This document shows, piece by piece, positions 5,035 through 28,871 of a stretch of 64,000 nucleotides of DNA (position 1 is its first letter; each line of letters opens with the position of its first letter). Source of the stretch: Alphaproteobacteria bacterium (GTDB lineage Bacteria; Pseudomonadota; Alphaproteobacteria; TMED109); NCBI GenBank assembly GCA_965203385.1, contig OZ241893.1, positions 269,986 to 333,985 of the forward strand, written 5' to 3'. The position numbers and the translations under genes were made by a program. The notes under the pieces are model-generated. The model did not search any database, was not told the DNA's origin, and worked only from the letters and a program-made list of their open reading frames with translations.

Positions 5035-5385
5035 TTTTTTCGCGGCTGGGTCTTCGTAACTGCACTTCGCGGACAAGGATTTTCCCTACCTTTCGCGGCG
5101 GTTTCTCGCTTTCGTTCACAGGTGCTCCCGGCGGATTTGGAGAGGGCTCCAGAACCGGGATACACTGGGTGCTGGAGACGGAAAGGAGAACGAATTTTTA
5201 GTGTTGGCCTAGACCACGCCAGCAAACTGTTCCGGGTGACCAGGTAGCGTACCCCTGTATGTACCCATCCTTTGCGGATGAGGACGAACGGCAAAATGTA
5301 TGCACCGCGGTTAGCCGAATGGCCACCTTGAGTGCTTCCCCCGGTCACCCACTCCGTCTCCAGCCATCTCACTGGGAGACGACTT

Positions 5386-6853
5386 ATGATTACCGATACC
5401 TTGCATGTTGTCCATTCGCGCGCTGCCGGAGTGGACGTGCACAAGCACCAGCTGACGGCCACCGTCCGCTTGGCCACGGGTGCTGGCGAACCGATGTGCG
5501 AGACGCAGACGTTCCGTGCTTTGGGGCCTGGTCTGGATGCCTTGGCCGAATGGTTGACTTCGCATGCCGTCACCGCGGCGGCCATGGAAGGAACGGGTGT
5601 GTACTGGCGGGCCCCGCTGGACCGGCTGGAGGCCGCCGGGATCGAAGTGCAGTTACTGCACGCCCATCACGTCAAGCAGCTGCGGGGGCGCAAGACCGAC
5701 GTGGAGGACAGCCGCTGGCTGGCGCGCGTCTGTCAGTTCGGACTGTGCCGTCCGAGTCTGGTGCCGAATCAAGAATTCCATGGCCTGCGGCGGATGAGCC
5801 GCTATCGCCGCCAACTGGTGCAGAAACGTAGTCAGACACGGAACCGGATTCAGAAGGAGATCGACGATGCCGGGGTTCGGATCGGCGGCATCCTCTCGGA
5901 TGTCTTCGGCAAGAACGGCCGGATCATTCTGGAGGGCCTGGCGCGAGGCGAGGACCGCGAGACGATCCTCTCGCGTCTGACTCCGCACGTGGCGGAGAAA
6001 ATCAAGCTGCTCGGGGAGGCGCTCACCCTGAAGCTTAGCTGCTCGGGTCGTATGATTCTCAACCACCTGATGACGGACGAGCGCGCCGAACAGGCTCGCA
6101 TCGCGGCCGTCGAGGCGTTTGGCCACCGCCCACAGGCCGTACGCGTTTCGGCCGTACGCTTCCCAGCTGATCCTCCTCCAGACCCTGCCCGGGATCGACC
6201 GGATCGGCGCCGCCGCGATCCTCGCCGAGATCGGCGGTCCCGACGTCACGCCGTTCGCGTCCGCCGAGGCGTTTACGGCCTGGGCCGGACTGGCACCAGG
6301 CAATCACGAGAGCGCCGGCAAACGCCGGAAAGCCACCACGCTCAAGGGCTCCCGCTACCTGCGCACCCTGCTGGTGGAGGCCGCCCACGGAGCCGCACGT
6401 ACCAAGAACTGTCAATTCGCCAGCTACCGGAAGGTGTTGACCGCACGCCGTGGCTATAAGCGCGCCATCGTGGCCACCGCCCACAAGATGGCACGTGCTC
6501 TCTATGCCATGCTGCGGGACGATGTCCCGTATCGCGACCCCGACATCGATTACGAAGCCCTGCTGGTCGATCGCAATGCCCCCCGGTGGCTGCGACAACT
6601 CAAAGAGTGCGGCGTACTCAAGCCGGGAGTGCCAGGACGGCCCGACCCAAGTGCGGCGTGTGGGCGACCACACCTTCCGAATCGACTGGAGTGCCAGGAC
6701 GGCCCGACCCAAACCGGCCTGAAACTTCCTCTGCGCACGATCCCGGACCACCGGCCCGTTGTCCAAAAAACAGGGGAAGACAACACCGCCAAGCCCCGAG
6801 ATCCGGCGCAGATATCGACGACCCAAAGCGTGCGCTCTAGGCCGCCACGCTAG
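5386..6853 (+). pseudogene. IS110-family transposase, apparently frameshifted near 6100-6130
   Basis: The N-terminal DEDD-type half (GVDVHKHQL...MEGTGVYW) lies in the ORF 5332..6459 frame. The C-terminal half (LLQTLPGIDRIGAAAILAEIGG...AGLAPGNHESAGK) lies in the ORF 6119..6853 frame. A frame change is needed to join them. Confidence 0.75.
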
Positions 6854-6881
6854 AGCTCGGCCCGGCCCGCCCGAGTGTTCA
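6844..6881. repeat. right (sub)terminal inverted repeat of the IS110-family element
   Basis: GCCACGCTAGAGCTCGGCCCGGCCCGCCCGAGTGTTCA is the reverse-complement partner of 4997..5034. Confidence 0.8.
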
Positions 6882-7390
6882 CGGCAAACCGCCTGCTTGT
6901 AGAGATCGACTACCGCAACAGACAGGGCAATCGTTCAACACGCGCAATCGAAGCCTACTCACTCCGCCGCTCGCAGGCCGGAGACGTATTGCTCATGGCC
7001 GTACGCGCGGACAGCGGCCGGTCGCGTAGCTATTTGGTCGACAGCATTCTCGGAGTCAAACCCACCCAGACGCCATTCACGCCGCGATACCCAATCGAGC
7101 TGATGCCATCGGGACTTCAGAGCATTCCGAGGACAACCCGTTCCGGTGGACACACAACCGGGGTAGGCCGCAGCACTAGGACCGTTTGGCGTTCACCTGC
7201 ACCACGCAGTGCGACCAGAAACACGAGTTTCCCGGCTGCAAGTGGTCCAACATACGTATTCAAGTGCACCGTTTGCGGAAAGACCTTTTACAGGAAGAAA
7301 TACGATGCCACATTGAACCAACACAGACATAAGCAAACTGGCTATCAATGCTATGGCACAGTCGGTAGACACGTGAAGACAAAATACTAG
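6875..7390 (+). pseudogene. 3' remainder of the interrupted abiEii-like gene (WYL-like segment plus Cys/His-rich tail)
   Basis: The first 5 codons are IS-derived. From codon N-R-L-L the frame continues the upstream ORF once the IS is removed. LVEIDYRNRQGNRSTRAIEAYSL...SRSYLVDSILGV resembles a WYL-type fold. The C-terminus contains CTVCGKTF...HRH...C. Confidence 0.55.
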
Positions 7391-7484
7391 CCCGGATTTC
7401 TCACCAACAAGACTGTACATGGGACCAAAACCGTGGTACAAACCGACGAATCAACACCTTATCGGTGTGCCACGGAGAGGTCCC

Positions 7485-8586
7485 ATGCAACCAGAGTGTA
7501 CCCCGAAGCAGTTGTGTTTTGAAGGCCTGGGTCGCCGTCGAGTGGAGGGGTGTTTCGACGGCGGTCGGCTGACGACGGACGGCGGCGTACTGCTCCTGCG
7601 GGAGGTCGACCAGCGGTTCCGCGTGACGGAGCGTCTGGCTGGCTGCTTCCAGGATCATCGCGGATCATCGCGCAGAAACGCGCATTGAGCATCGTCTGGA
7701 GACGCTGGTCGCCCAGCGGGTACTGGGGCTGGCGGCGGGGTATGAGGATTTGAACGATCACGACCGTCTGCGCACGGACAGCCTGCTGGCGCTGGCAAGC
7801 GGGTGCCAGGATCTCACCGGGGAACAGCGCCGCCGGGAGCGGGACCGGGGACAGGCGCTGGCGGGTTCCAGCACCCTGAACCGGCTCGAGCTCAGCGAGC
7901 CGGACACGGCGGCCGGAGACCGGTACAAGAAAATCGCGGCCGACCCGGCGGCGATGGACTCGCTGCTGGTGCAATTGTTCCTCGAGGCTCATGACGAACC
8001 GCCCGGGGAGATCGTGCTCGATCTGGATGCGACCAACGATCCGCTGTACGGGAACCAGGAGGGGCGGTTCTACCACGGCTAGTACGACGAATACTGCTAT
8101 CTTCCGTTGTACATCACTTGCGGCGACTTCGTCCTGTGCGCCCGGCTGCGTCCGGCCGATGTCGATCCGGCGAAAGGATCGGTGGAGGAACTGAAGCGGA
8201 TCGTGGCCCAGATCCGCGCCGTCTGGCCGAACCTCCCGATCCTGGTGCGCGGCGACGCCGGCTTCTGCCGCGATGAACTCTTGACCTGGTGTGAAGAGAC
8301 TGGCCTCGACTACGTGTTCGGTCTGGCCCGCAATAACCGTCTGGAAAAGTGGCTGGCGAAGGCGCTGCACAAGTCCCGGCGCCGCTGCGCCGCCACGGGG
8401 CAGGCGTCCCGGCGGTTCCGGGACCGGCGTTATCGGACCCAGAAATCCTGGAGCCGCACCCGCCGGGTGGTCGGCAAGGCCGAGTGGCTGCCGGGACTGA
8501 GAGGCGCGAATCCGCGTTTCGTCGTCACCAACCTGCCGGCGGATTCGGTCGGCGCACAGCCGCTGTACGAAAAAGTGTACTGCGCC
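7485..8586 (+). pseudogene. IS1380-family transposase, 5' part (10-bp duplication, in-frame TAG, then truncated by IS21 insertion)
   Basis: MQPECTPKQLCFEGLGRR...TTDGGVLLLREVD is followed by a frame break at the tandem GGATCATCGC duplication. LDLDATNDPLYGNQEG..FYHG is followed by TAG at 8080..8082. The same frame then continues through YDEYCYLPLY...EKVYCA. Confidence 0.85.
7652..7671. repeat. 10-bp tandem duplication (GGATCATCGC x2) that frameshifts the IS1380 transposase
   Basis: Deleting one copy restores FQDHRAETRIEHRLETLVAQRVLGLAAGYEDLNDHD in a single frame. Confidence 0.85.
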
Positions 8587-8793
8587 TGTTGGCGGCGAAA
8601 TAAAACGGCGGGATTCCGGCGGTAAGCCGCGCTTTTCCGAAGGTCGTTTCTTTCCCTATTGTACGACTGCCGGAGCTCCTGCCGCCGGGTGGCAGGAAGG
8701 CGCGTTCGGCGCCGAACGGATCACGGGTGGCTCAGCGGCCTCCTTGAGCCGGCCGGCCGCTGCCTTCGTTGGTTCCGGCCCGTCTGGCCGCTG

Positions 8794-8805
8794 CGTTACG
8801 TAACG
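8794..8805. promoter_or_regulatory. 12-bp perfect palindrome CGTTACGTAACG downstream of the 100-aa ORF
   Basis: Read directly. The same core recurs at 9156..9173 and in copy B. Confidence 0.4.
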
Positions 8806-8826
8806 GTGCTACAGCGGGTACCCGCA

Positions 8827-9129
8827 TCACCCGTCGCGACCGAACCCGCGGGGCAGTTCCTGTTCTGCCAGGGCTTCGAGGTCGAGGTCGTCAAGGGCTT
8901 CGATCGCCTGGTCCAGGAGTTCTGCGGTCGCCGTCGTCTCCAGCGCCTCTGGCAGGGCGTTCCGCCAGTCACGGTATTCCTCCCGGATCGCGATGATGGC
9001 GTCGATGGCGTCGTGCAGCCGCTGCCGGCGCGAGCGCCGGTCCGGCGGCGGGCGCCGCGCCGCCGGTGACTGACCCTCGCGCCGGCGCTGACGAAAGCGC
9101 CGTTGCCGTTCGGCGTTGGACAGTGCCAT
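8827..9129 (-). CDS. hypothetical 100-aa protein carried by the IS21-family element
   Basis: Internal ATG of ORF 8827..9528 (MALSNAERQRRFRQRRREG...PRGFGRDG). It is identical in both copies and has a basic N-terminus and an acidic helical C-terminus. Confidence 0.5.
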   Translation of the reverse strand: MALSNAERQRRFRQRRREGQSPAARRPPPDRRSRRQRLHDAIDAIIAIREEYRDWRNALPEALETTATAELLDQAIEALDDLDLEALAEQELPRGFGRDG

Positions 9130-9155
9130 CGGGTTGCCTTTCTTGATCCCTTGCG

Positions 9156-9173
9156 CCCCGTTACGTAACGGGG
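9156..9173. promoter_or_regulatory. 18-bp perfect palindrome CCCCGTTACGTAACGGGG upstream of the 100-aa ORF (candidate operator)
   Basis: Read directly. It lies 27 bp upstream of the ATG at 9129. Confidence 0.4.
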
Positions 9174-9269
9174 TCCGGAGACCGGGACTTCCGGCCGCCG
9201 CGCAGGCTTCGGCTGGCCGTCGGCACAGGGGTGCGCCGTGACCCCGCCGGCCCGGGCGTTCCGGCGGCG

Positions 9270-10133
9270 TCAGCCTGTCGCGGCGGCGCAGATGACGTCG
9301 TTCCAGTCGGCGTGTTCGGGCGGACGCCGTCGCTGGAACGCGACCTGCGAGGGGACCTCGAGTTGACGGCGCAAGGCTTCGGCCTGGCGCTCTCCGGCCT
9401 CGTCGTGGTCCTGTGCGAGGACGACGGTGCGGACGTTGGGTAGGGTGCGGGCGGCGAGTCCGATCTGCTCGCGTTGTCGGCGCGAGGGGGCGCCGGCGGT
9501 GGAGAGGAAGGCCTGGCTGGGGTGGCACTGCTCAATCTGGGCCAGGCTGAGGGCGTCGACGGCGCCTTCGGTGATGACGAGGGTTTTCAGGTCGGCGGCG
9601 TGTCCGGCGCGGACGGCGAACAGGCTGCGGGAGCCGCCGGTGGCGAAGCGTCTCGCGCCGTCGGGCGGGCCGATCTCGAAGCCGGTGAGGCGGCGGTGGC
9701 GGTCGCGGTGGGCGAAGAGGACGTGGCCGTGGCGGTCGCGGCGGATCAGCGGGCGGGCGGCGGCGAGCGTCTCCGGGCGGATGCCGCGGCCGACCAGCCA
9801 GGCCGGCGCCGGGTCCGGTACGGCCGCGTGCCAGTGGCGGCGGAAGTCGCGCGCGGTGCCCGCGGGTTTGCCGTAGCGGGTGCGGATCTCGGCGAAGGAG
9901 AGGCCGCGACGGAGCAGGAAGTCGATCGCGGTACCGTGGTCATCGCTATCGAGGGTACTGAAGTAGACCCAGTGTCCGTTGGGGCACAGCTTCGTGACGA
10001 GTTTCGCCTGGCCCGGCGCGCGGAGCACGGGGTTCGCGCGGGTCGAGGCCTGGGGATCGCGGACGTATCCCCAGTCCGCCGCGATGCCCTCGAGCGGCCG
10101 GCGCTTGAGCGCGTCGAAGTCGACGTAGGTCAT
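9270..10133 (-). CDS. Toprim-domain protein with DUF3991-like N-terminal region (primase-like)
   Basis: The 287-aa ORF starts MTYVDF... and its ATG overlaps the istB stop (ATGA). VITEGAVDALS and LAQDHDEAG look like Toprim Glu and DxD motifs. Confidence 0.65.
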   Translation of the reverse strand: MTYVDFDALKRRPLEGIAADWGYVRDPQASTRANPVLRAPGQAKLVTKLCPNGHWVYFSTLDSDDHGTAIDFLLRRGLSFAEIRTRYGKPAGTARDFRRHWHAAVPDPAPAWLVGRGIRPETLAAARPLIRRDRHGHVLFAHRDRHRRLTGFEIGPPDGARRFATGGSRSLFAVRAGHAADLKTLVITEGAVDALSLAQIEQCHPSQAFLSTAGAPSRRQREQIGLAARTLPNVRTVVLAQDHDEAGERQAEALRRQLEVPSQVAFQRRRPPEHADWNDVICAAATG

Positions 10134-10831
10134 CCGGCTTCGCGCCGGGTGCGCCACGAATCACCGTCGATGGTGATGAGGGCGGCGTCGTGCATCAGTC
10201 GGTCGACGGTGCCGGCGATGCCGGCGGCGCTGGGGAAGACGCGGTCCCACTGGGCGAAGGCCAGCGTGGTGGTGACCAGGGTGGAGCGGCGCTGGTAGCG
10301 CCGCGAGACGAGGGCGTAGAGGAGGTCGGCCGCGGGGCTCTTGAGGGTCACATATCCGATCTCGTCGAGGACCAGCAGGCGGGGCCGGGCGAGGATTCCG
10401 AGGCGGCGGCGCAGTTCGCTTCTCGAGGAGATCTCGACGAGTTTGTCGAGCAACTCCGGCGCTTTCTCGAAGCGGACGGTGTGGCCGTGCAGGAGCGCCT
10501 GGTGCGCGACGTTGGCGGCGATCATGGTCTTGCCGGTGCCCTGTCCGCCGACGAGCACGGCGTTGTCGGCCCGCTCGATGAAGGCGAGGCTCATCAGGGC
10601 CTCGACGCGGTCGCGGCTCAGGTCGCGCGGCCAGGTCCAGTCGAAGTCCGCCAGCGGCTTGAAGGCCGGCAGCCGCGCCCCGGCGCGGCGGCGGTCGTAG
10701 CTGCGGGTGTGGCGCACCCGTTCCTCGCTGGCGATCAGTTCCTCGACCCAGCCGGCGCTGCCGACCTCCTCCCAGCGTTCGAGCAGTCCGCGGAGGCCGA
10801 GGGCGGCGGCCCGTTTCCTGAGGTCGCTCAT
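10130..10831 (-). CDS. istB: IS21-family helper ATPase IstB
   Basis: 233 aa with a Walker A (VGGQGTGKT) and Walker B (LLVLDEIGY). The start overlaps the istA stop (ATGA). Confidence 0.9.
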   Translation of the reverse strand: MSDLRKRAAALGLRGLLERWEEVGSAGWVEELIASEERVRHTRSYDRRRAGARLPAFKPLADFDWTWPRDLSRDRVEALMSLAFIERADNAVLVGGQGTGKTMIAANVAHQALLHGHTVRFEKAPELLDKLVEISSRSELRRRLGILARPRLLVLDEIGYVTLKSPAADLLYALVSRRYQRRSTLVTTTLAFAQWDRVFPSAAGIAGTVDRLMHDAALITIDGDSWRTRREAG

Positions 10832-12321
10832 GACGCGTCCCGGTCGGCCGCGGCGGGCCGGTCGTAGGCGTCGAGGCCGGTCGCCCGGGGAGTCGTGCCG
10901 CGGCCGTCGCGGTCGTCGTCGGTGAGGCTGACAGGCGGCAGGCCCCGCTGGCGGCGGCGCTCCTCGAGGATGGCGCGCACCGTTTCGGGGTGATATGACC
11001 CGCGATCGTGCGCCATGGCGATCCCCCGGTCGACCTCGTCGGCGCCGTGCGTGTCGAGCAGCTTGGTCAGGATCCGGGCGCAGTACGTGACGTTCCGGCC
11101 CCGATGCCCGGCGTGCGCGAGCATCTCCTCCGCCCGCGGCACGGCGCGCAGCAGCCGGTCGCGCAGGCTCATGGCCCGGCCCTGCCGCTTGCGCGCCGCC
11201 AGCGCCCGGGCATGCTCCGGGTCGCTGACGGCCTGCTGCCGGTCGTAGCAGCGCCGGTGGCGCGCGACCTCGCGGGTACCGTCGAGGAGGCGGACGGTGC
11301 TGCGGTCGGCGGCGAGGGTCAGCGTCGCTCCGGCGAAGTCGGGCGGGACGCTGTAGTCGTTCGTATCGAACCGTGCGTAACAGGTCCGGTCGATGCGCGC
11401 CGGGCGGATCTCGTGGCACGAGAAGGGTGCGTCCGGCAGCGGCACCAGCATCGGCTTTTCCCGCTCGTAGGCGTCCCGGACGAGCTGGCGGTCGTCGTCC
11501 GGCCAGGGCCGCTCGGCGGCGATGCCGGCGCACCACGCCCGGGCCGCGGCGTTGAGTTCGTCGAGCGGGGCCGAGAGGTCGCGACCGGCGAAGAAGCTGG
11601 TGCGCACGAAGCGGACGCGGCGTTCCACGCGCCCCTTCTCCTGCGGCCGCCGGGGCCAGGCGGCGCTCGGCTCGAAGGCGTAGTGGGCGGCCAGCGCGAG
11701 CAGGGTCGAATGGAAGGTGACGGCCTTGCCCCGGCGCGTGATCACGGCGCTCTTGAGGTTGTCGAACAGGAGCCTTCTGGGCACACCGCCGAACGCTGCG
11801 AAGGCCTCGACATGGCCCTGCAGGAAGCTCGGCATCCGCGCGTCGTAAAACAGGCTGAGAGAGGTCTGGCGCGAATAGCTGAGGGTCACCAGCAGCCCCA
11901 TCAGCGGGCGCCGCGCCTGGCCGATATCGACCTTCCCGAACTCGGCCCAGTCGACCTGCGCCTGCTCCGCCGGCAGGAAGCGGAGCCGCAGCGACGGCTC
12001 GGGCCGCCGGGCGGGCCGGAGGTCGAGGGCGCGCAGGCTGTGGCGAAAGTGATCCTCCCCGCCCTGGTAGCCCCGCGCCTTGACCTGCCGCCAGAGCGTG
12101 CCGGCCGGCAGCCGCGGCTCCTCTTCGAGCTGCTTCCGGATGAAGGGCACGAAGGTGTCGATGAACTTCGCCCGCGGCCGCCGCTCCGCGCCGGCCGCCC
12201 GCAGCGCCCGCGTCACCGTACCGTGGTGTACGCCGAGATGCCGCGCGATGGTCCCGACCGGCCAGCCCTCGGCCCGCGACAGCCGCACGATCGTCGACCG
12301 CATCTCCTCGTCGATAGCCAT
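10828..12321 (-). CDS. istA: IS21-family transposase IstA
   Basis: 497 aa with an N-terminal HTH (GWPVGTIARHLGVHHGTV) and a DDE integrase core (QVDWAEFG...LFDNLKSAV). Confidence 0.9.
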   Translation of the reverse strand: MAIDEEMRSTIVRLSRAEGWPVGTIARHLGVHHGTVTRALRAAGAERRPRAKFIDTFVPFIRKQLEEEPRLPAGTLWRQVKARGYQGGEDHFRHSLRALDLRPARRPEPSLRLRFLPAEQAQVDWAEFGKVDIGQARRPLMGLLVTLSYSRQTSLSLFYDARMPSFLQGHVEAFAAFGGVPRRLLFDNLKSAVITRRGKAVTFHSTLLALAAHYAFEPSAAWPRRPQEKGRVERRVRFVRTSFFAGRDLSAPLDELNAAARAWCAGIAAERPWPDDDRQLVRDAYEREKPMLVPLPDAPFSCHEIRPARIDRTCYARFDTNDYSVPPDFAGATLTLAADRSTVRLLDGTREVARHRRCYDRQQAVSDPEHARALAARKRQGRAMSLRDRLLRAVPRAEEMLAHAGHRGRNVTYCARILTKLLDTHGADEVDRGIAMAHDRGSYHPETVRAILEERRRQRGLPPVSLTDDDRDGRGTTPRATGLDAYDRPAAADRDAS

Positions 12322-12354
12322 GAAATCGCCTCCCGTTGTGTCTCCATGACGCGA

Positions 12355-12795
12355 TCAGGGGTCCGCCAGCACCAGATGCGAGCACACCCGACCGCAGATG
12401 ACGCATCGAGGCACGGATTCGCGCCTCGATCGCGCCGGAAACACCCGACATAGGGGCTCGCGCCGGGGTCCGGAAGAGTGGTCCGTAACGGTTGGGCGGA
12501 AAGCGGCGCCAGCCGGGGCCGAAGGAGCGGCGCGGAACGGGCCCGCAGCCGCCGCCCGGGCGGCCAGGCGCGCCCGGAGCGCCTGACGCCTCCGGTAGCG
12601 CTGCTGACGGATCCGGCCCGTCTCGCGCCCCCGCTCGGTGCGGCGGTAGCGCCTCCGCGCCGCCCGGCGGTTCTCGACCCGGGACCGCTCGCTGCAGGCC
12701 CGGGAGCAGTACATCTGGCCGCGGTCGCAGGACCGGCAGATCACGACCTGCCGACGGCACCGCTGGCACGGGAACAGGCGTCCGGTCCGGCACAT
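12355..12795 (-). CDS. Cys-rich, Arg-rich hypothetical protein (zinc-ribbon-like) upstream of istA
   Basis: 146 aa. The N-terminus has CQRC-x6-CRSC-x6-C-x3-C and the C-terminus has CVICGRVC. It is intact in both copies. High-GC background makes a spurious ORF possible. Confidence 0.45.
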   Translation of the reverse strand: MCRTGRLFPCQRCRRQVVICRSCDRGQMYCSRACSERSRVENRRAARRRYRRTERGRETGRIRQQRYRRRQALRARLAARAAAAGPFRAAPSAPAGAAFRPTVTDHSSGPRREPLCRVFPARSRRESVPRCVICGRVCSHLVLADP

Positions 12796-13218
12796 CGCTC
12801 CGCCCGAGAGCGAGGTAGACCCAAACGCCGGAATGCCGGATACTCCACGGGAGTTCGGTCCCCGTGACCGGCTCGTTCAGGTGCGGCGCCGGGATTCTGG
12901 GTGAATCTGTGCCGGCGCCGCATCACTCTCTTCTTCCCTGCTGCGATACCACGCGGACACGGCCGTGGCAAAGCCGGCCCGACCGAACCGGCGACAAGAA
13001 CGCACTCGATCTATCCCGAATGGTGCCGTGCGCCCGACCCCTGCCTCAGGCGCGAATCTCACTCCGACACAGTACGGAAATCCGGCCGCCGGCCGGCGCA
13101 CACGATCGATACCCCACGGTACGACTCGACCAATAGGACCGTACAATGGGAAAAGGAACGATCCTGGCCAAAACGCGGCTTACCGCCAGAATCCCGCGCT
13201 TTTTCGCAGCCATCAACA

Positions 13219-22174: not shown

Positions 22175-22610
22175 TTACACACTACTCACTCCTGTCAAGG
22201 GTGCACCGGCGGAAGTCCGTATCGCCCGCCGGTGCGGTCGGGTGCACGGAAAAGTCGCCGCAAGTACTGTACGGCGGGAGATAGCGGCGTTTCTTTGTAA
22301 TACCCGTGAAAGCAGACCTTCCTGGTTCCCGTGCAGCGGACCGTCGGTTGCGTCCAGATCGAGCACGGTCTTCCCGGGCGGTTCATCAGGAGCCTCGATG
22401 AACAACTTCACCGGCAGCCAGTCCATGCCACCGGATCTGCCGCGATTTTCTTGCACCGGCCCCTTGCCGGTTTCCGGCCGCCCGCGTCCGGCACGCTGAT
22501 CTCGAGCCCGGTGTGCTCGACCCCGCCAGCTCTTGTTTCCGGTCACGTTCCCGGCGGCGCTGTTCCCCGATCACGCAAGTCTCCGTTCGACGACACCTTT
22601 GATTTGTCGT
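22175..22610 (-). pseudogene. IS1380-family transposase internal fragment (second, diverged relic)
   Basis: GEQRRRERDRKQELAGSST, LFIEAPDEPPGKTVLDLDATDGPLHGNQEG and FHGYYKE are spread over three frames. The fragment is collinear with residues of the element at 7485..8586 but diverged. Confidence 0.6.
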
Positions 22611-22648
22611 TGATCGACGACATGCGTACACTGTTGTCGTTCGACGAC
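22583..22648. promoter_or_regulatory. three inverted-repeat sites (TGTCGT-N3/6-ACGACA type) upstream of hipB, candidate HipB operators
   Basis: CCGTTCGACGAC at 22583..22594, GTCGTTGATCGACGAC at 22606..22621 and GTCGTTCGACGAC at 22636..22648. All three lie upstream of the ATG at 22661. Confidence 0.4.
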
Positions 22649-22660
22649 ATCGGATCCGTC

Positions 22661-22951
22661 ATGCAAATCAGAACCCCGCTGGAACTCGGTCTGGCCATCC
22701 GCGACCGACGTCGCAAGCTCAAGCTGAGCCAAAACGAGCTCGCGCACAAGGCCGGGGTCGGACGACAATGGATCGTCGCCATTGAGCAGGGCAAGCCACG
22801 GGCCGAACTGGGACTGGTGTTTCGCACCCTTGCCGCCTTGGACCTTCCGCTGACAATCCATACCGATTTTCGCCAGCTTTCGCCGAGCGACGACCTGGAG
22901 CCCGTCGATATCGACGCTGTCGTGAACGCCGCTCGAGAAGTTCAGAAATGA
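22661..22951 (+). CDS. hipB: HipB-type XRE antitoxin
   Basis: The ATG at 22661 lies in ORF 22331..22951. LSQNELAHKAGVGRQWIVAIEQGK is the HTH. Its stop overlaps the hipA start (ATGA). Confidence 0.75.
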   Translation: MQIRTPLELGLAIRDRRRKLKLSQNELAHKAGVGRQWIVAIEQGKPRAELGLVFRTLAALDLPLTIHTDFRQLSPSDDLEPVDIDAVVNAAREVQK

Positions 22952-23841
22952 CCGGAGTTCTTGTGGTCGTGGCCGACCGCCGGATCATGGGCGAGATTCA
23001 GCGCAACCGGCGGGGCCGGCTGACGTTCATTTACGATGACCGCTGGCGGTCCATGGATGCAGCTTATCCGCTCTCCCTTTCCATGCCGGTCTTGGTCGCC
23101 GAACATGCGCACGCCAGGATCGAGCCCTGGCTCCGGGGACTGCTGCCCGACAACGAAATTATCCTGGACCGCTGGGGGAAGCGGTTCCACGTATCGTCCC
23201 GCAACGCCTTCGCCTTGCTTGCCGCAGTTGGTGAGGACTGCCCTGGCGCCATCCAGCTGGTGCGGCCGGACCGGGTTGACGACGTGCTTCAGGGGGATGA
23301 CCAGCAAATCGAATGGATGACCGAAGCCGATATCGCCGGTCGCCTGCAGCTCCTGAAAGAAGATCAGGCCGCGTGGCGGATCGCGGGCGATATCGGTCAA
23401 TTCAGCCTGGCTGGTGCGCAGCCGAAGACGGCGCTCCTCTTCGACGGTCGGCGTTGGGGGGTACCGCACGGCCCGGTGCCAACCACCCACATCCTGAAAC
23501 CACCCGTTCACGGGCTTGACGGCCACGCTGAAAACGAGCACCTGTGCCTGACGCTGGCCCGGACATTGGGACTGCCGGCGGCGCATTCGGAAGTCCGCAG
23601 GTTTGCAGGTGAACCGGCAATCATCGTGGAACGCTACGACCGAATCAGACGCACCGGGTCCATCCGGCGCCTTCACCAGGAAGACATGTGCCAGGTCCTG
23701 GGACTTCCCCCGACAAGGAAATACCAGAACGAAGGCGGCCCCGGATATGCCGAACTGGGGGAAGCGATCCGGGCGCACTCGGGAAGTCCTGGCGAGGATG
23801 CGTGGACGTTCGCACGTGCCATCATGCTGAACTGGATCATC
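22948..23841 (+). pseudogene. hipA: HipA-family Ser/Thr kinase toxin, 5' part (298 codons), interrupted by IS21-family copy B
   Basis: N-terminal coupling domain, then FSLAGAQPKTALL, HILKP and LHQEDMCQVLG. The frame is broken after ..AIMLNWII. Confidence 0.85.
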
Positions 23842-24264
23842 TGTTGATGGCTGCGAAAAAGCGCGGGATTCTGGCGGTAAGCCGCGTTTTGGCCAGGATC
23901 GTTCCTTTTCCCATTGTACGGTCCTATTGGTCGAGTCGTACCGTGGGGTATCGATCGTGTGCGCCGGCCGGCGGCCGGATTTCCGTACTGTGTCGGAGTG
24001 AGATTCGCGCCTGAGGCAGGGGTCGGGCGCACGGCACCATTCGGGATAGATCGAGTGCGTTCTTGTCGCCGGTTCGGTCGGGCCGGCTTTGCCACGGCCG
24101 TGTCCGCGTGGTATCGCAGCAGGGAAGAAGAGAGCGATGCGGCGCCGGCACAGATTCAGCAAGAATCCCGGCGCCGCACCTGAACGAGCTGGTCACGGGG
24201 ACCGAACTCCCGTGGAGTATCCGGCATTTCGGCGTTTGGGTCTACCTCGCTCTCGGGCGGAGCG

Positions 24265-24705
24265 ATGTGCCAGACCGGACGCCTGTTCCCGTGCCAGCGG
24301 TGCCGTCGGCAGGTCGTGATCTGCCGGTCCTGCGACCGTGGCCAGATGTACTGCTCCCGGGCCTGCAGCGAGCGGTCCCGGGTCGAGAACCGCCGGGCGG
24401 CGCGGAGGCGCTACCGCCGCACCGAGCGGGGGCGCGAGACGGGCCGGATCCGTCAGCAGCGCTACCGGAGGCGTCAGGCGCTCCGGGCGCGCCTGGCCGC
24501 CCGGGCGGCGGCCGCGGGCACGGTCCGCGCCGCTCCTTCGGCCCCGGCCGGCGCCGCTTTCCGCCCAACCGTTACGGACCACTCTTCCGGACCCCGTCGA
24601 GAGCCCCTATGTCGGGTGTTTCCGGCGCGATCGAGGCGCGAATCCGTGCCTCGATGCGTCATCTGCGGTCGGGTGTGCTCGCACCTGGTGCTGGCGGACC
24701 CCTGA
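24265..24705 (+). CDS. Cys-rich, Arg-rich hypothetical protein (zinc-ribbon-like), copy B
   Basis: 146 aa, with 3 aa differences from copy A and no disruption. Confidence 0.45.
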   Translation: MCQTGRLFPCQRCRRQVVICRSCDRGQMYCSRACSERSRVENRRAARRRYRRTERGRETGRIRQQRYRRRQALRARLAARAAAAGTVRAAPSAPAGAAFRPTVTDHSSGPRREPLCRVFPARSRRESVPRCVICGRVCSHLVLADP

Positions 24706-24738
24706 TCGCGTCATGGAGACACAACGAGAGGCGATTTC

Positions 24739-26232
24739 ATGGCTATCGACGAGGAGATGCGGTCGACGATCGTGCGGCTGTCGCGGGCCGAGGGCTGGCC
24801 GGTCGGGACCATCGCGCGGCATCTCGGCGTACACCACGGTACGGTGACGCGGGCGCTGCGGGCGGCCGGCGCGGAGCGGCGGCCGCGGGCGAAGTTCATC
24901 GACACCTTCGTGCCCTTCATCCGGAAGCAGCTCGAAGAGGAGCCGCGGCTGCCGGCCGGCACGCTCTGGCGGCAGGTCAAGGCGCGGGGCTACCAGGGCG
25001 GGGAGGATCACTTTCGCCACAGCCTGCGCGCCCTCGACCTCCGGCCCGCCCGGCGGCCCGAGCCGTCGCTGCGGCTCCGCTTCCTGCCGGCGGAGCAGGC
25101 GCAGGTCGACTGGGCCGAGTTCGGGAAGGTCGACATCGGCCAGGCGCGGCGCCCGCTGATGGGGCTGCTGGTGACCCTCAGCTATTCGCGCCAGACCTCT
25201 CTCAGCCTGTTTTACGACGCGCGGATGCCAAGCTTCCTGCAGGGCCATGTCGAGGCCTTCGAGGCGTTCGGCGGTGTGCCCAGAAGGCTTCTGTTCGACA
25301 ACCTCAAGAGCGCCGTGATCACGCGCCGGGGCAAGGCCGTCACCTTCCATTCGACCCTGCTCGCGCTGGCCGCCCACTACGCCTTCGAGCCGAGCGCCGC
25401 CTGGCCCCGGCAACCGCAGGAGAAGGGGCGCGTGGAACGCCGCGTCCGCTTCGTGCGCACCAGCTTCTTCGCCGGCCGCGACCTCTCGGCCCCGCTCGAC
25501 GAACTCAACGCCGCGGCCCGGGCGTGGTGCGCCGGCATCGCCGCCGAACGGCCCTGGCCGGACGACGACCGCCAGCTCGTCCGGGACGCCTACGAGCGGG
25601 AAAAGCCGATGCTGGTGCCGCTGCCGGACGCACCCTTCTCGTGCCACGAGATCCGCCCGGCGCGCATCGACCGGACCTGTTACGCACGGTTCGATACGAA
25701 CGACTACAGCGTCCCGCCCGACTTCGCCGGAGCGACGCTGACCCTCGCCGCCGACCGCAGCACCGTCCGCCTCCTCGACGGTACCCGCGAGGTCGCGCGC
25801 CACCGGCGCTGCTACGACCGGCAGCAGGCCGTCAGCGACCCGGAGCATGCCCGGGCGCTGGCGGCGCGCAAGCGGCACGGCCGGGCCATGAGCCTGCGCG
25901 ACCGGCTGCTGCGCGCCGTGCCGCGGGCGGAGGAGACGCTCGCGCACGCCGGGCATCGGGGCCGGAACGTCACGTACTGCGCCCGGATCCTGACCAAGCT
26001 GCTCGACACGCACGGCGCCGACGAGGTCGACCGGGCGATCGCCATGGCGCACGATCGCGGGTCATATCACCCCGAAACGGTGCGCGCCATCCTCGAGGAG
26101 CGCCGCCGCCAGCGGGGCCTGCCGCCTGTCAGCCTCACCGACGCCGACCGCGACGGCCGCGGCACGACTCCCCGGGCGACCCGCCTCGACGCCTACGACC
26201 GGCCCGCCGCGGCTGACCCGGACGCGTCATGA
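24739..26232 (+). CDS. istA: IS21-family transposase IstA, copy B
   Basis: 497 aa, with 8 aa differences from copy A by my count. Confidence 0.9.
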   Translation: MAIDEEMRSTIVRLSRAEGWPVGTIARHLGVHHGTVTRALRAAGAERRPRAKFIDTFVPFIRKQLEEEPRLPAGTLWRQVKARGYQGGEDHFRHSLRALDLRPARRPEPSLRLRFLPAEQAQVDWAEFGKVDIGQARRPLMGLLVTLSYSRQTSLSLFYDARMPSFLQGHVEAFEAFGGVPRRLLFDNLKSAVITRRGKAVTFHSTLLALAAHYAFEPSAAWPRQPQEKGRVERRVRFVRTSFFAGRDLSAPLDELNAAARAWCAGIAAERPWPDDDRQLVRDAYEREKPMLVPLPDAPFSCHEIRPARIDRTCYARFDTNDYSVPPDFAGATLTLAADRSTVRLLDGTREVARHRRCYDRQQAVSDPEHARALAARKRHGRAMSLRDRLLRAVPRAEETLAHAGHRGRNVTYCARILTKLLDTHGADEVDRAIAMAHDRGSYHPETVRAILEERRRQRGLPPVSLTDADRDGRGTTPRATRLDAYDRPAAADPDAS

Positions 26233-26930
26233 GCGACCTCAGGAAACGGGCCGCCGCCCTCGGCCTCCGCGGACTGCTCGAACGCTGGGAGGAGGTCGGC
26301 AGCGCCGGCTGGGTCGAGGAACTGATCGCCAGCGAGGAACGGGTGCGCCACACCCGCAGCTACGACCGCCGCCGCGCCGGGGCGCGGCTGCCGGCCTTCA
26401 AGCCGCTGGCGGACTTCGACTGGACCTGGCCGCGCGACCTGAGCCGCGACCGCGTCGAGGCCCTGATGAGCCTCGCCTTCATCGAGCGGGCCGACAACGC
26501 CGTGCTCGTCGGCGGACAGGGCACCGGCAAGACCATGATCGCCGCCAACGTCGCGCACCAGGCGCTCCTGCACGGCCACACCGTCCGCTTCGAGAAAGCG
26601 CCGGAGTTGCTCGACAAACTCGTCGAGATCTCCTCGAGAAGCGAACTGCGCCGCCGCCTCGGAATCCTCGCCCGGCCCCGCCTGCTGGTCCTCGACGAGA
26701 TCGGATACGTGACCCTCAAGAGCCCCGCGGCCGACCTCCTCTACGCCCTCGTCTCGCGGCGCTACCAGCGCCGCTCCACCCTGGTCACCACCACGCTGGC
26801 CTTCGCCCAGTGGGACCGCGTCTTCCCCAGCGCCGCCGGCATCGCCGGCACCGTCGACCGACTGATGCACGACGCCGCCCTCATCACCATCGACGGTGAT
26901 TCGTGGCGCACCCGGCGCGAAGCCGGATGA
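26229..26930 (+). CDS. istB: IS21-family helper ATPase IstB, copy B
   Basis: 233 aa, identical to copy A. Confidence 0.9.
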   Translation: MSDLRKRAAALGLRGLLERWEEVGSAGWVEELIASEERVRHTRSYDRRRAGARLPAFKPLADFDWTWPRDLSRDRVEALMSLAFIERADNAVLVGGQGTGKTMIAANVAHQALLHGHTVRFEKAPELLDKLVEISSRSELRRRLGILARPRLLVLDEIGYVTLKSPAADLLYALVSRRYQRRSTLVTTTLAFAQWDRVFPSAAGIAGTVDRLMHDAALITIDGDSWRTRREAG

Positions 26931-27790
26931 CCTACGTCGACTTCGACGCGCTCAAGCGCCGGCCGCTCGAGGGCATCGCGGCGGACTGGGGATACGTCCG
27001 CGATCCCCAGGCCTCGACCCGCGCGAACCCCGTGCTCCGCGCGCCGGGCCAGGCGAAACTCGTCACGAAACTGTGCCCCAACGGACACTGGGTCTACTTC
27101 AGTACCCTCGATAGCGATGACCACGGTACCGCGATCGACTTCCTGCTCCGTCGCGGCCTCTCCTTTGCCGAGATCCGCGCCCGCTACGGCCAGCCCGCGG
27201 GCACCGCGCGCGACTTCCGCCGCCACTGGCACGCGGCCCTGCCGGATCCGGCGCCGGCCTGGCTGGTCGGCCGCGGCATCCGCCCGGAGACGCTCGCCGC
27301 CGCCCGCCCGCTGATCCGCCGCGACCGCCAGGGCCGCGTCCTCTTCGCCCACCGCGACCGCCACCGCCGCCTCACCGGCTTCGAGATCGGCCCGCCCGAC
27401 GGCGCGAGACGCTTCGCCACCGGCGGCTCCCGCAGCCTGTTCGCCGTCCGCGCCGGACACGCCGCCGACCTGAAAACCCTCGTCATCACCGAAGGCGCCG
27501 TCGACGCCCTCAGCCTGGCCCAGATTGAGCAGTGCCACCCCAGCCAGGCCTTCCTCTCCACCGCCGGCGCCCCCTCGCGCCGACAACGCGAGCAGATCGG
27601 ACTCGCCGCCCGCACCCTCCCCAACGTCCGCACCGTCGTCCTCGCACAGGACCACGACGAGGCCGGAGAGCGCCAGGCCGATACCTTGCGCCGCCAACTC
27701 GAAGTCCCCTCGCAGGTCGCGTTCCAGCGACGCCGTCCGCCCGAACACGCCGACTGGAACGACGTCATCTGCGCCGCCGCGACAGGCTGA
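26927..27790 (+). CDS. Toprim-domain / DUF3991-like protein, copy B
   Basis: 287 aa with ATGA overlap with istB. It has 7 aa differences from copy A. Confidence 0.65.
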   Translation: MTYVDFDALKRRPLEGIAADWGYVRDPQASTRANPVLRAPGQAKLVTKLCPNGHWVYFSTLDSDDHGTAIDFLLRRGLSFAEIRARYGQPAGTARDFRRHWHAALPDPAPAWLVGRGIRPETLAAARPLIRRDRQGRVLFAHRDRHRRLTGFEIGPPDGARRFATGGSRSLFAVRAGHAADLKTLVITEGAVDALSLAQIEQCHPSQAFLSTAGAPSRRQREQIGLAARTLPNVRTVVLAQDHDEAGERQADTLRRQLEVPSQVAFQRRRPPEHADWNDVICAAATG

Positions 27791-27886
27791 CGCCGCCGGA
27801 CCGCCCGGGCCGGCGGGGTCACGGCGCACCCCTGTGCCGACGGCCAGCCGAAGCCTGCGCGGCGGCCGGAAGTCCCGGTCTCCGGA

Positions 27887-27904
27887 CCCCGTTACGTAAC
27901 GGGG
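27887..27904. promoter_or_regulatory. 18-bp palindrome CCCCGTTACGTAACGGGG upstream of the 100-aa ORF, copy B
   Basis: Read directly. Confidence 0.4.
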
Positions 27905-27930
27905 CGCAAGGGATCAAGAAAGGCAACCCG

Positions 27931-28233
27931 ATGGCACTGTCCAACGCCGAACGGCAACGGCGCTTTCGTCAGCGCCGGCGCGAGGGTCAGTCACCGGCGG
28001 CGCGGCGCCCGCCGCCGGACCGGCGCTCGCGCCGGCAGCGGCTGCACGACGCCATCGACGCCATCATCGCGATCCGGGAGGAATACCGTGACTGGCGGAA
28101 CGCCCTGCCAGAGGCGCTGGAGACGACGGCAACCGCAGAACTCCTGGACCAGGCGATCGAAGCCCTTGACGACCTCGACCTCGAAGCCCTGGCAGAACAG
28201 GAACTGCCCCGCGGGTTCGGTCGCGACGGGTGA
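27931..28233 (+). CDS. hypothetical 100-aa protein carried by the IS21-family element, copy B
   Basis: Identical translation to copy A. Confidence 0.5.
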   Translation: MALSNAERQRRFRQRRREGQSPAARRPPPDRRSRRQRLHDAIDAIIAIREEYRDWRNALPEALETTATAELLDQAIEALDDLDLEALAEQELPRGFGRDG

Positions 28234-28254
28234 TGCGGGTACCCGCTGTAGCAC

Positions 28255-28266
28255 CGTTACGTAACG
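28255..28266. promoter_or_regulatory. 12-bp palindrome CGTTACGTAACG downstream of the 100-aa ORF, copy B
   Basis: Read directly. Confidence 0.4.
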
Positions 28267-28478
28267 CAGCGGCCAGACGGGCCGGAACCAACGAAGGCAG
28301 CGGCCGGCCGGCTCAAGGAGGCCGCTGAGCCACCCGTGATCCGTTCGGCGCCGAACGCGCCTTCCTGTCACCCGGCGGCAGGAGCTCCGGCAGTCGTACA
28401 ATAGGGAAAGAAACGACCTTCGGAAAAGCGCGGCTTACCGCCGGAATCCCGCCGTTTTATTTCGCCGCCAACATCATC

Positions 28479-28871
28479 GGCAACACCGATGCACACGCAA
28501 AGAACTTCTCCATGCTCATTGGCGTTCCGGGGCAATCACGCCTGGCGCCACTCTACGATATGGCCAGCATGCTGCCTTACGGCTTCAGTGCCAGAAGCCT
28601 GAAGATGGCAACCAGGATCGGCGGGAAATACCGGCTCGAAGAGGTTGCCTCACGCCATTGGTCACGGTTCGCCGCAGACGTACGCCTGCCGCCCGCTGAA
28701 TTCCTGGACATGGGCGTGGCCATGGCCGAAGCGTTGCCCGCCGCATTTGGCGAGATTGTCGAGCGCGCTCGCGCTGACGGACTCGATCACCCGATCCTGG
28801 AGCGTATGGTCGAGGTCCTGGACGCTCGCTCCGCTCGCTGCGCCCAAGTGCTGAGATCGGCGGCAGATTGA
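28479..28871 (+). pseudogene. hipA: HipA-family toxin, 3' part
   Basis: GNTDAHAKNFSML..LAPLYDM is the catalytic/activation region of HipA kinases. It is in frame with ORF 28512..28871. Confidence 0.85.

Follow-up and report, generated by a model that had tools for sequence, protein, structure and literature searches.

A primase-like Toprim gene closes the conserved four-gene set of an IS21-family insertion sequence and co-occurs with a structured leader

The window analysed here is a stretch of 64,000 nt from an Alphaproteobacteria bacterium (TMED109; assembly GCA_965203385.1, contig OZ241893.1, positions 269,986-333,985, forward strand). It carries a complete insertion sequence (IS) of the IS21 family in which the transposition genes istA and istB are followed by a gene for a Toprim-domain protein, called here the Toprim gene. 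This gene is the last conserved gene of a four-gene IS21-family IS (leader-orfA-istA-istB-primase-like) of 4.1-5.3 kb depending on the lineage, and its product has the predicted fold of a DnaG/T7 gp4-type primase core. The element transposes as a single unit and is active at present. We consider that there is about an even chance that the primase-like enzyme makes primers for the element's own replicative (copy-out) step.

The element, its parts and its second copy lie at the following positions of the window:

23837-23841 (no strand), target-site duplication TCATC, left; the hipA frame is restored on removal
23842-28473 (+), complete IS21-family element, copy 1, 4,632 bp, within hipA; defined by co-linearity with copy 2, terminal inverted repeats and target duplication
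23842-23920 (+), left terminal inverted repeat, 79 nt, starting TGTTG, with subterminal CC(C/T)ATTGT repeats
24116-24270 (+), structured non-coding leader, directly 5' of orfA, defined by alignment and covariance model (copy 2: 12790-12944, -)
24265-24705 (+), orfA, 146 aa, Cys-rich and Arg-rich; conserved in tblastn searches
24739-26232 (+), istA, IS21-family DDE transposase, 497 aa; NCBIfam NF033546, Pfam
26229-26930 (+), istB, AAA+ helper ATPase, 233 aa; Pfam IstB_IS21
26927-27790 (+), Toprim gene, DnaG/T7 gp4-type primase-like by profiles, predicted fold and conserved residues, 287 aa
27931-28233 (+), orfE, 100 aa, lineage-specific accessory gene by homologue search
28395-28473 (+), right terminal inverted repeat, 79 nt, ending CAACA
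28474-28478 (no strand), target-site duplication TCATC, right, from the flank sequence
8587-13218 (-), element copy 2, 98.9% identical to copy 1; its Toprim gene is at 9270-10133 (-)

The arms of the terminal inverted repeats (TIRs) of copy 1 are 79 nt long, imperfect and 76% complementary, and the hipA frame (...NWII joined to GNTDAHAKN...) is regained once the element and one TCATC are taken out. Copy 2 is co-linear with copy 1 across exactly 4,632 bp (51 differences), so that the boundaries of the element are fixed independently. It is flanked by a 5-bp duplication of its own, GCGCC, and splits a transposase open reading frame (ORF) whose halves read ...EKVYCA and RGDMENRIKE...; judged by eye, this ORF looks like an IS1380-type transposase. 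A left region of about 420 nt is followed, in order, by orfA, istA, istB, the Toprim gene and orfE. IS ends of the form TGT(T/C)G are conserved in 6 lineages, conserved ends were also seen in the elements of other genomes, and target-site duplications of 5-7 bp were found at 12 copies.

The product of istA matches the IS21 transposase model NCBIfam NF033546 (233.8 bits, cut-off 160, E=2.9e-69) as well as Pfam HTH_23 and Mu-transpos_C_2 (1e-23). That of istB matches Pfam IstB_IS21 (PF01695; E=3.1e-50, 171 bits), carries a Walker A (GQGTGKT) and a Walker B (LVLDE) motif, and scores 192.8 bits with NF038214, slightly below the cut-off of 200. An IS21-type IstA, an overlapping downstream istB, and TIRs with subterminal repeats and a short target-site duplication thus place the element in the IS21 family. 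It departs from the family's two-ORF format of about 2-2.6 kb, having four conserved genes and one variable ORF in 4,632 bp. The istA stop and istB start form an ATGA overlap (26229-26232), as do the istB stop and the start of the Toprim gene (26927-26930). Both overlaps had been reported in a preliminary description of this DNA, which regarded the three genes as one coupled unit; the overlaps are real, and the unit is larger, as it includes orfA and the leader. The bounded 4,632-bp IS, orfA and the leader, orfE and the second full copy in the window were all absent from that description.

The Toprim gene opens at ATG 26927 and closes at TGA 27788-27790, encoding 287 aa as previously proposed, with GTG 26903 as an alternative opening of the frame. 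The preliminary assignment to DUF3991 and Toprim was borne out by Pfam: Toprim_2 scores 53 bits (cut-off 22.1, E=4.6e-14) and DUF3991 29.5 bits (cut-off 24.5, E=1e-6), with further matches to Toprim_3 (1.9e-7), Toprim_4 and Toprim. Scores above these cut-offs were obtained for Toprim_2 in 48/48 and for DUF3991 in 45/48 of the aligned homologues. The two acidic motifs pointed out earlier are present at residues 187-196 (ITEGAVDALS) and 240-247 (AQDHDEAG), and the catalytic residues are conserved: across 48 homologues (31-98% identity) E189, D244, D276, N278, H142, G151, F163, D65 and G67 are invariant, and D242 is conserved in at least 90%.

A search of PDB with the profile of the 48 homologues retrieved the T7 gp4 primase fragment 1nui (E=3.7e-10, positions 93-281 against T7 gp4 residues 41-225). 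This match spans the DUF3991 and Toprim regions, and the same profile matched DnaG cores weakly. The structure prediction and fold search that had been suggested as a check gave an AlphaFold (AF2) model with a predicted local distance difference test score (pLDDT) of 93.4. The best 25 Foldseek matches of this model in PDB are all DnaG, T7 gp4 or Twinkle primases; the best is the zinc-binding domain (ZBD) plus RNA-polymerase domain (RPD) of Aquifex DnaG (1.7e-7), and unrelated folds start at E>2e-3. Residues 52-82 align with the ZBD of E. coli DnaG (HGTAIDFL against HGNAIDFL, E=1e-4), and Pfam zf-CHC2 gave no match. PHROGs matches are DNA primase families only, and the sole PADLOC match is the DnaG-like module of a DRT model (RTasDnaG-like, 7.6e-10). 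The features of a DnaG-type primase found here are the Toprim Glu and DxD and an RPD N-terminal subdomain preceding Toprim. These profiles and the model bear out the preliminary primase-type label, and the protein is predicted to be a DnaG/T7 gp4-type primase core made of a ZBD-like N-terminus devoid of ligands, an RPD N-subdomain (DUF3991) and a Toprim domain whose acidic metal site is intact. We class it within the DUF3991-Toprim family, with a predicted primase-like active site, and not as DnaG.

The acidic site made of E189, D242/D244 and D276 would equally fit metal-dependent phosphodiester cleavage, and OLD-family nucleases and RNase M5 use Toprim for metal-dependent cleavage of this type. 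The protein might therefore be a nuclease or nickase that cuts the non-transferred strand (TnsA-like, giving cut-and-paste) or resolves a figure-eight, cointegrate or tandem-junction intermediate. Such a reading would agree with the missing zinc-binding ligands, which primases use for template recognition, and with the lack of family-wide conservation at the residues aligned with T7 K122/K128. We nevertheless regard it as quite improbable, as every significant sequence or fold match is to a primase, including the primase-specific N-terminal subdomain and the ZBD-like domain. Likewise, relaxase fusions on plasmids, one of them typed IncQ, place the module at the position of the RepB primase in RSF1010 MobA. 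The defence-system Toprim nucleases (OLD/Gabija, PARIS and Wadjet JetD) were rejected as candidates, since PADLOC gave no match to their models.

Linkage of the Toprim gene to istAB, another check that had been proposed, was examined in a scan of one genome per species, which yielded 49 loci with relatives, all in alphaproteobacterial metagenome-assembled genomes (MAGs). The gene lies directly downstream of istB in 47 of the 49 loci, the two exceptions being gene fragments, and orfA, istA, istB and the Toprim gene are all full-length and in the same order in 41. About 12 further contigs again carry a close Toprim homologue directly after istB. Divergent homologues with 50-62% identity (loci L069-L080) keep the same gene order. 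In all, every homologue examined with at least 50% identity (range 50-98%) follows istB directly, inside IS ends. Unlinked homologues were met only in the distant outgroup, so that neither of the two outcomes named in the preliminary description as refuting its idea (no linkage to istAB, unconserved catalytic residues) was seen for the clade of this gene. The istB/Toprim junction takes the form of an ATGA, a 1-nt gap or an overlap of about 10-17 nt, with an ATG or GTG start. One MAG (OZ219747) contains about 35 copies of the element, each with its own target duplication, and others contain 2-5. In any one genome the copies match at 99-100% identity across 4.1-5.3 kb and diverge sharply beyond that, and their 5-7-bp duplications differ.

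Pairwise dN/dS values (Nei-Gojobori, six lineages) are 0.31-0.44 for the Toprim gene, 0.32-0.42 for istA, 0.19-0.39 for istB and 0.44-0.71 for orfA. The dS values are similar among the four genes, and Toprim divergence tracks IstA/IstB divergence. The four genes diverge together, and the Toprim gene is constrained as much as the transposase. An exhaustive search of 1.84 billion cluster representatives returned 1,086 matches, 18 of them at E<=1e-30. Above 50% identity only 2-3 full-length representatives (50% clustering) and fragments were found, all other matches being at or below 45%; the IS-linked Toprim proteins are a separate clade, set off by this identity gap (at least 50% against at most 45%). 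No close copy of the element was found among PLSDB plasmids, where all matches fall below 40% identity.

Several observations were made on individual copies. In the OZ219747 copies (L007, about 7282-7509, and others) orfE is followed by a partial, decayed second version of the Toprim gene (aa 88-162, 51-57% identity). In this genome, blocks of a repeat of about 350 bp vary in number and bring copy length to 4.98-5.33 kb, and one copy (L006, 7092-9532) carries an extra 2.4-kb insertion. In L079/L080 the public call at 6173-7021 places a domain-free ORF of 282 aa on the opposite strand; tblastn revealed an intact forward-strand Toprim gene at 6227-7075, and the public call is an annotation artefact of GC-rich sequence. 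Proteins at least 90% identical to the IS-linked P0015 are annotated in MAGs of Chloroflexota, Gemmatimonadota and Gammaproteobacteria, reflecting either broad horizontal transfer or mis-binned repeat contigs.

The alignment further showed that about 150 nt directly 5' of orfA (24116-24270) are strongly conserved though non-coding. This leader, structured over about 130 nt, lies about 275 nt from the left end of the element, and its consensus fold has five helices and 33 pairs. The bases are paired in 94.6% of the alignment cells, and 12 of the 33 pairs show compensatory change. These values were reached by none of 500 shuffles, and slid controls gave 32-43% pairing. A covariance model (R1) scored 61-168 bits in all 16 Toprim-bearing elements with 5' sequence, including L069 and L070. 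The leader was undetected, even with filters off, in all the Toprim-less relatives searched; Rfam gave no match to the leader or anywhere else in the element. The Toprim gene and the leader thus have the same phyletic distribution, although one lies at the start of the operon and the other at its end, and their association holds even though the Toprim-bearing L069 is nearer to the Toprim-less group in IstA/IstB. G-U pairs in the alignment put the structure on the sense strand and are the sole evidence favouring one strand. We consider the leader a candidate RNA leader or single-strand DNA initiation site. A priming site near the right end of the element was also considered and dropped, the terminal repeat alone being conserved there; in one lineage only 157 nt separate the Toprim gene from the right end.

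Outside the IS-linked group, homologues with 31-45% identity adjoin genes for type IV secretion systems (T4SS), coupling proteins, relaxases, topoisomerase III, TraG or ParB, and not istAB, or else form the C-terminal part of proteins of 700-950 aa. On pPNAP08 (6.5 kb, IncQ-type) and on a 5.2-kb Citrobacter Mob plasmid, a MobA/VirD2-type relaxase fusion beside MobC has the homologous module as its C-terminal third; the pPNAP08 fusion also adjoins a RepA helicase and RepC. In RSF1010 the corresponding position is held by the RepB primase of MobA. The plasmid fusions represent domain displacement in a primase slot and lend indirect support to a priming activity. Judging from these homologies, the Toprim protein probably derives from primase-like proteins of conjugative or mobilisable plasmids.

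IstA relatives with 41-52% identity number 1,712 proteins at E<=1e-30, mostly on contigs of 3-4 kb. In Toprim-less relatives istB is followed by a small acidic ORF or another ORF, and one such relative is bounded by inverted repeats 3.26 kb apart. The small acidic ORF, with the motif PEHW..EAL.VFEFID, lies at 3057-3263 in L055, 3796-4065 in L056, 3210-3470 in L057 and 3141-3422 in L058. In the Toprim-less L081 (Candidatus Thiodictyon syntrophicum, CP020370) a 571-aa ORF (5864-7579) with no Pfam match splits the 5' part of istB. A neighbour-joining (NJ) tree of IstA+IstB recovered the main Toprim clade with 100% support, and the Toprim-bearing L069 and L073 grouped with the Toprim-less L055-58 at 89% and with L060 at 91% bootstrap; in a tree with fewer taxa the corresponding bootstrap is 61-78%. 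A single origin of the Toprim gene, as such, was rejected on this placement of L069/L073 (89-91% bootstrap). The grouping with Toprim-less elements implies that the gene was lost or transferred: on this tree, either it was ancestral, with at least two losses, or it passed from one lineage to another.

These data bear on whether the gene is a passenger, captured as cargo from a conjugative or mobilisable plasmid and playing no role in transposition, in which case the host or a plasmid in the same cell might profit from it, or it might act in conflicts with other mobile elements. The nearest outgroup homologues (31-45%) do lie in T4SS, relaxase, TraG and ParB contexts or in relaxase fusions, the Toprim-bearing elements are not one clade (L069+L073 with L055-58, 89%), and the slot after istB is variable: L055-58 have small acidic ORFs there, L060/L061 have another ORF, and in two lineages the Toprim gene is followed by orfE. 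Several findings nonetheless make the passenger explanation unlikely. The start/stop overlap with istB is kept across about 50% protein divergence, the dN/dS and dS values of the gene are the same as those of the transposase, and its divergence follows that of IstA/IstB. Decay or deletion would be the expected fate of useless cargo, yet the gene is intact in 41 of the 49 loci, including about 35 copies in one genome. Finally, it is lost or gained together with a leader that is not adjacent to it but lies at the far end of the operon.

A non-catalytic or regulatory partner, which through binding to the leader RNA/DNA or to IstB, a paralogue of DnaC, would tune transposition frequency, target choice or immunity, could also account for the co-occurrence of leader and gene. 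Translational coupling implies stoichiometric co-production with IstB, and the gene is dispensable in sister lineages. We hold this to be very improbable, as the invariant metal-binding acidic set, together with H142, G151 and F163 (31-98% identity), argues for retained catalysis.

For the replicative priming role proposed above, the starting point is that a copy-out/paste-in pathway has been proposed for IS21 (PMC11208146; bioRxiv 10.1101/2023.06.07.543989). During copy-out of a circular or abutted-end intermediate, one strand would be extended from the donor 3'-OH, and the other would need a new primer, which the element's own enzyme would supply; with such self-priming the step would no longer depend on assembly of the host primosome. 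More speculatively, the sense-strand leader may be the initiation site of the primase-like enzyme, by analogy with the IncQ single-strand initiation (ssi) sites or the G4-type sites of DnaG. RepB of RSF1010 primes at ssi hairpins. A fuller scheme, possible but doubtful, would make the element a self-priming IS: the transposase would circularise one strand, synthesis from the donor 3'-OH would displace that strand, the primase would start the complementary strand at the multi-hairpin leader on the sense strand, and the single-stranded circle would become a double-stranded, integration-competent one with no host primosome involved. The IS would thereby contain, in the leader, what amounts to a single-strand origin, and primase gene and leader would constitute a two-part module, gained and lost together.

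A number of observations weigh against priming, or against the leader as its site. At the level of the protein, the zinc ligands of DnaG are replaced, the CxxH...CxxC positions not being Cys/His, the basic residues at the T7 K122/K128 positions lack conservation in the wider family, and NCBIfam dnaG (TIGR01391) scores 16.5 bits against a cut-off of 283.6. There is no DnaG-type C-terminal helicase (DnaB)-binding domain, as the protein ends 9 residues past the Toprim DWND motif. At the level of the element, canonical IS21/IS5376 integrates in vitro with IstA and IstB alone (PMC11208146), and the relatives examined, from an abundant set, consist of orfA-istA-istB devoid of the Toprim gene, which is hence not essential to the subgroup. 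As for the leader, its fold z-scores (-3.3 to -4.1) are similar for DNA and RNA and for either strand, it could simply be a 5'-untranslated region, and its co-distribution with the Toprim gene goes back to a small number of independent evolutionary events. Downstream of the Toprim gene, as far as the right end, the terminal repeat was the only conserved non-coding site detected. It should be added that the literature gave no biochemical or genetic data on any DUF3991-Toprim protein.

Comparison with known systems helps to define the element. Canonical IS21 members have two ORFs between TIRs and an operon of about 2 kb (PMC10122671). The present element shares with IS21/IS5376 an IS21-type IstA, an IstB gene overlapping istA, TG-initiated imperfect TIRs with subterminal repeats, 5-7-bp duplications, and insertion in genes with little evident site specificity. 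It differs in its size of 4.6 kb, in the presence of orfA, the leader, the istB-coupled primase-like gene and a variable fifth ORF, and in an IstA about 100 aa longer. The conjugative and plasmid DUF3991/Toprim proteins show full-length homology (31-45%), the same three-part architecture and the same conserved residues, but their genes lie among transfer and mobilisation genes whereas that of the element lies beside istA-istB. DnaG and the T7 gp4 primase domain have in common with the Toprim protein the fold order (ZBD, RPD N-subdomain, Toprim) and the acidic metal site. By contrast with DnaG, the element's protein has neither Cys/His zinc ligands nor a helicase-interaction domain, and is encoded by a transposable element.

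The IncQ relaxase-primase system (RSF1010 MobA/RepB, ssiA/ssiB) resembles the element in that the ZBD-like, DUF3991 and Toprim module occurs in relaxase fusions next to MobC, and a self-supplied primase acting at structured single-strand sites may serve as a working analogy. Unlike in RSF1010, the element's protein is stand-alone, resides in an IS and is accompanied by no helicase or initiator gene, and the ssi role of the leader is putative; RepB' of RSF1010 has a different, non-Toprim fold. The IS-excision enhancer (IEE), a PrimPol-helicase, has been argued to act in trans at the copy-out of circle-forming IS, and IS21 is listed among the circle-forming families (bioRxiv 10.1101/2023.06.07.543989). 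Both IEE and the Toprim protein are primase-type enzymes proposed for a replicative copy-out step. IEE, however, joins a primase of the archaeo-eukaryotic type to a helicase, its gene lies outside the IS, and the outcome that it promotes is excision or abortive transposition.

In the literature on IS21 and IstB, a search that did not extend to ISfinder, we found no description of an element with a Toprim, primase, istC or such passenger gene. The parts are of known kinds, and their combination in one IS21 element (the coupled primase-like gene, the structured leader that is co-distributed with it, and the Cys-rich orfA) is undescribed in the literature found. IS21 is a structural model for AAA+-regulated transposition, for which a replicative route and second-strand priming have so far only been proposed; a lineage that keeps a primase-like gene under selection provides indirect evidence for DNA synthesis in the pathway. 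The leader co-occurring with the gene, and sister lineages lacking both, offer a ready-made genetic contrast. A priming role would place the DUF3991-Toprim proteins, which are widespread on conjugative and mobilisable plasmids and uncharacterised, in a functional context for the first time, and would put insertion sequences on the short list of transposons carrying replication enzymes. Current annotation splits these 4-5-kb elements into unconnected 'IS21 transposase', 'IstB' and 'toprim domain protein' genes.

The first gene, orfA, was found by tblastn in all elements, with or without the Toprim gene. Seven Cys residues are invariant in its product (C13, C20, C23, C30, C34, C131 and C134). 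The predicted model (pLDDT 76.6) and the sequence gave no Pfam, PDB or fold match; the best Foldseek match, the YacG zinc finger, is not significant (E=4.1). This gene is kept upstream of istA throughout a very large IS21 subgroup (loci including L055-L061 and L081), where it is a family-level unknown.

The last ORF, orfE, has no Pfam match, and homologues (41-44% identity) were found only in the OZ219747 elements. As it is confined to one other lineage and has no family match, it is not a core part of the element. It is bracketed by a perfect 12-bp palindrome, CGTTACGTAACG, at 27890-27901 and 28255-28266, with counterparts in copy 2 at 9159-9170 and 8794-8805. The palindrome occurs exactly twice per element, against a chance expectation of 0.01 per window, and in 0 of 82 other loci; the two sites could serve as paired operators or be the termini of a small inserted cassette. 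A sigma-70/terminator scan of the element gave no promoter, such a scan being uninformative in GC-rich sequence.

The gene interrupted by copy 1 reads as follows:

22948-23841 (+), hipA, N-terminal part, cut by copy 1; Pfam Couple_hipA and HipA_C
28474-28871 (+), hipA, C-terminal part; Pfam HipA_C profile positions 150-211 and frame continuity

The insertion inactivated this hipA toxin gene. The ORF upstream (22331-22951) overlaps the hipA start and looks like a helix-turn-helix (HipB-like) antitoxin, which the insertion would have left without its partner. A further transposase-like ORF, of 375 aa (5332-6459, +), directly upstream of copy 2 points to an IS-rich region.

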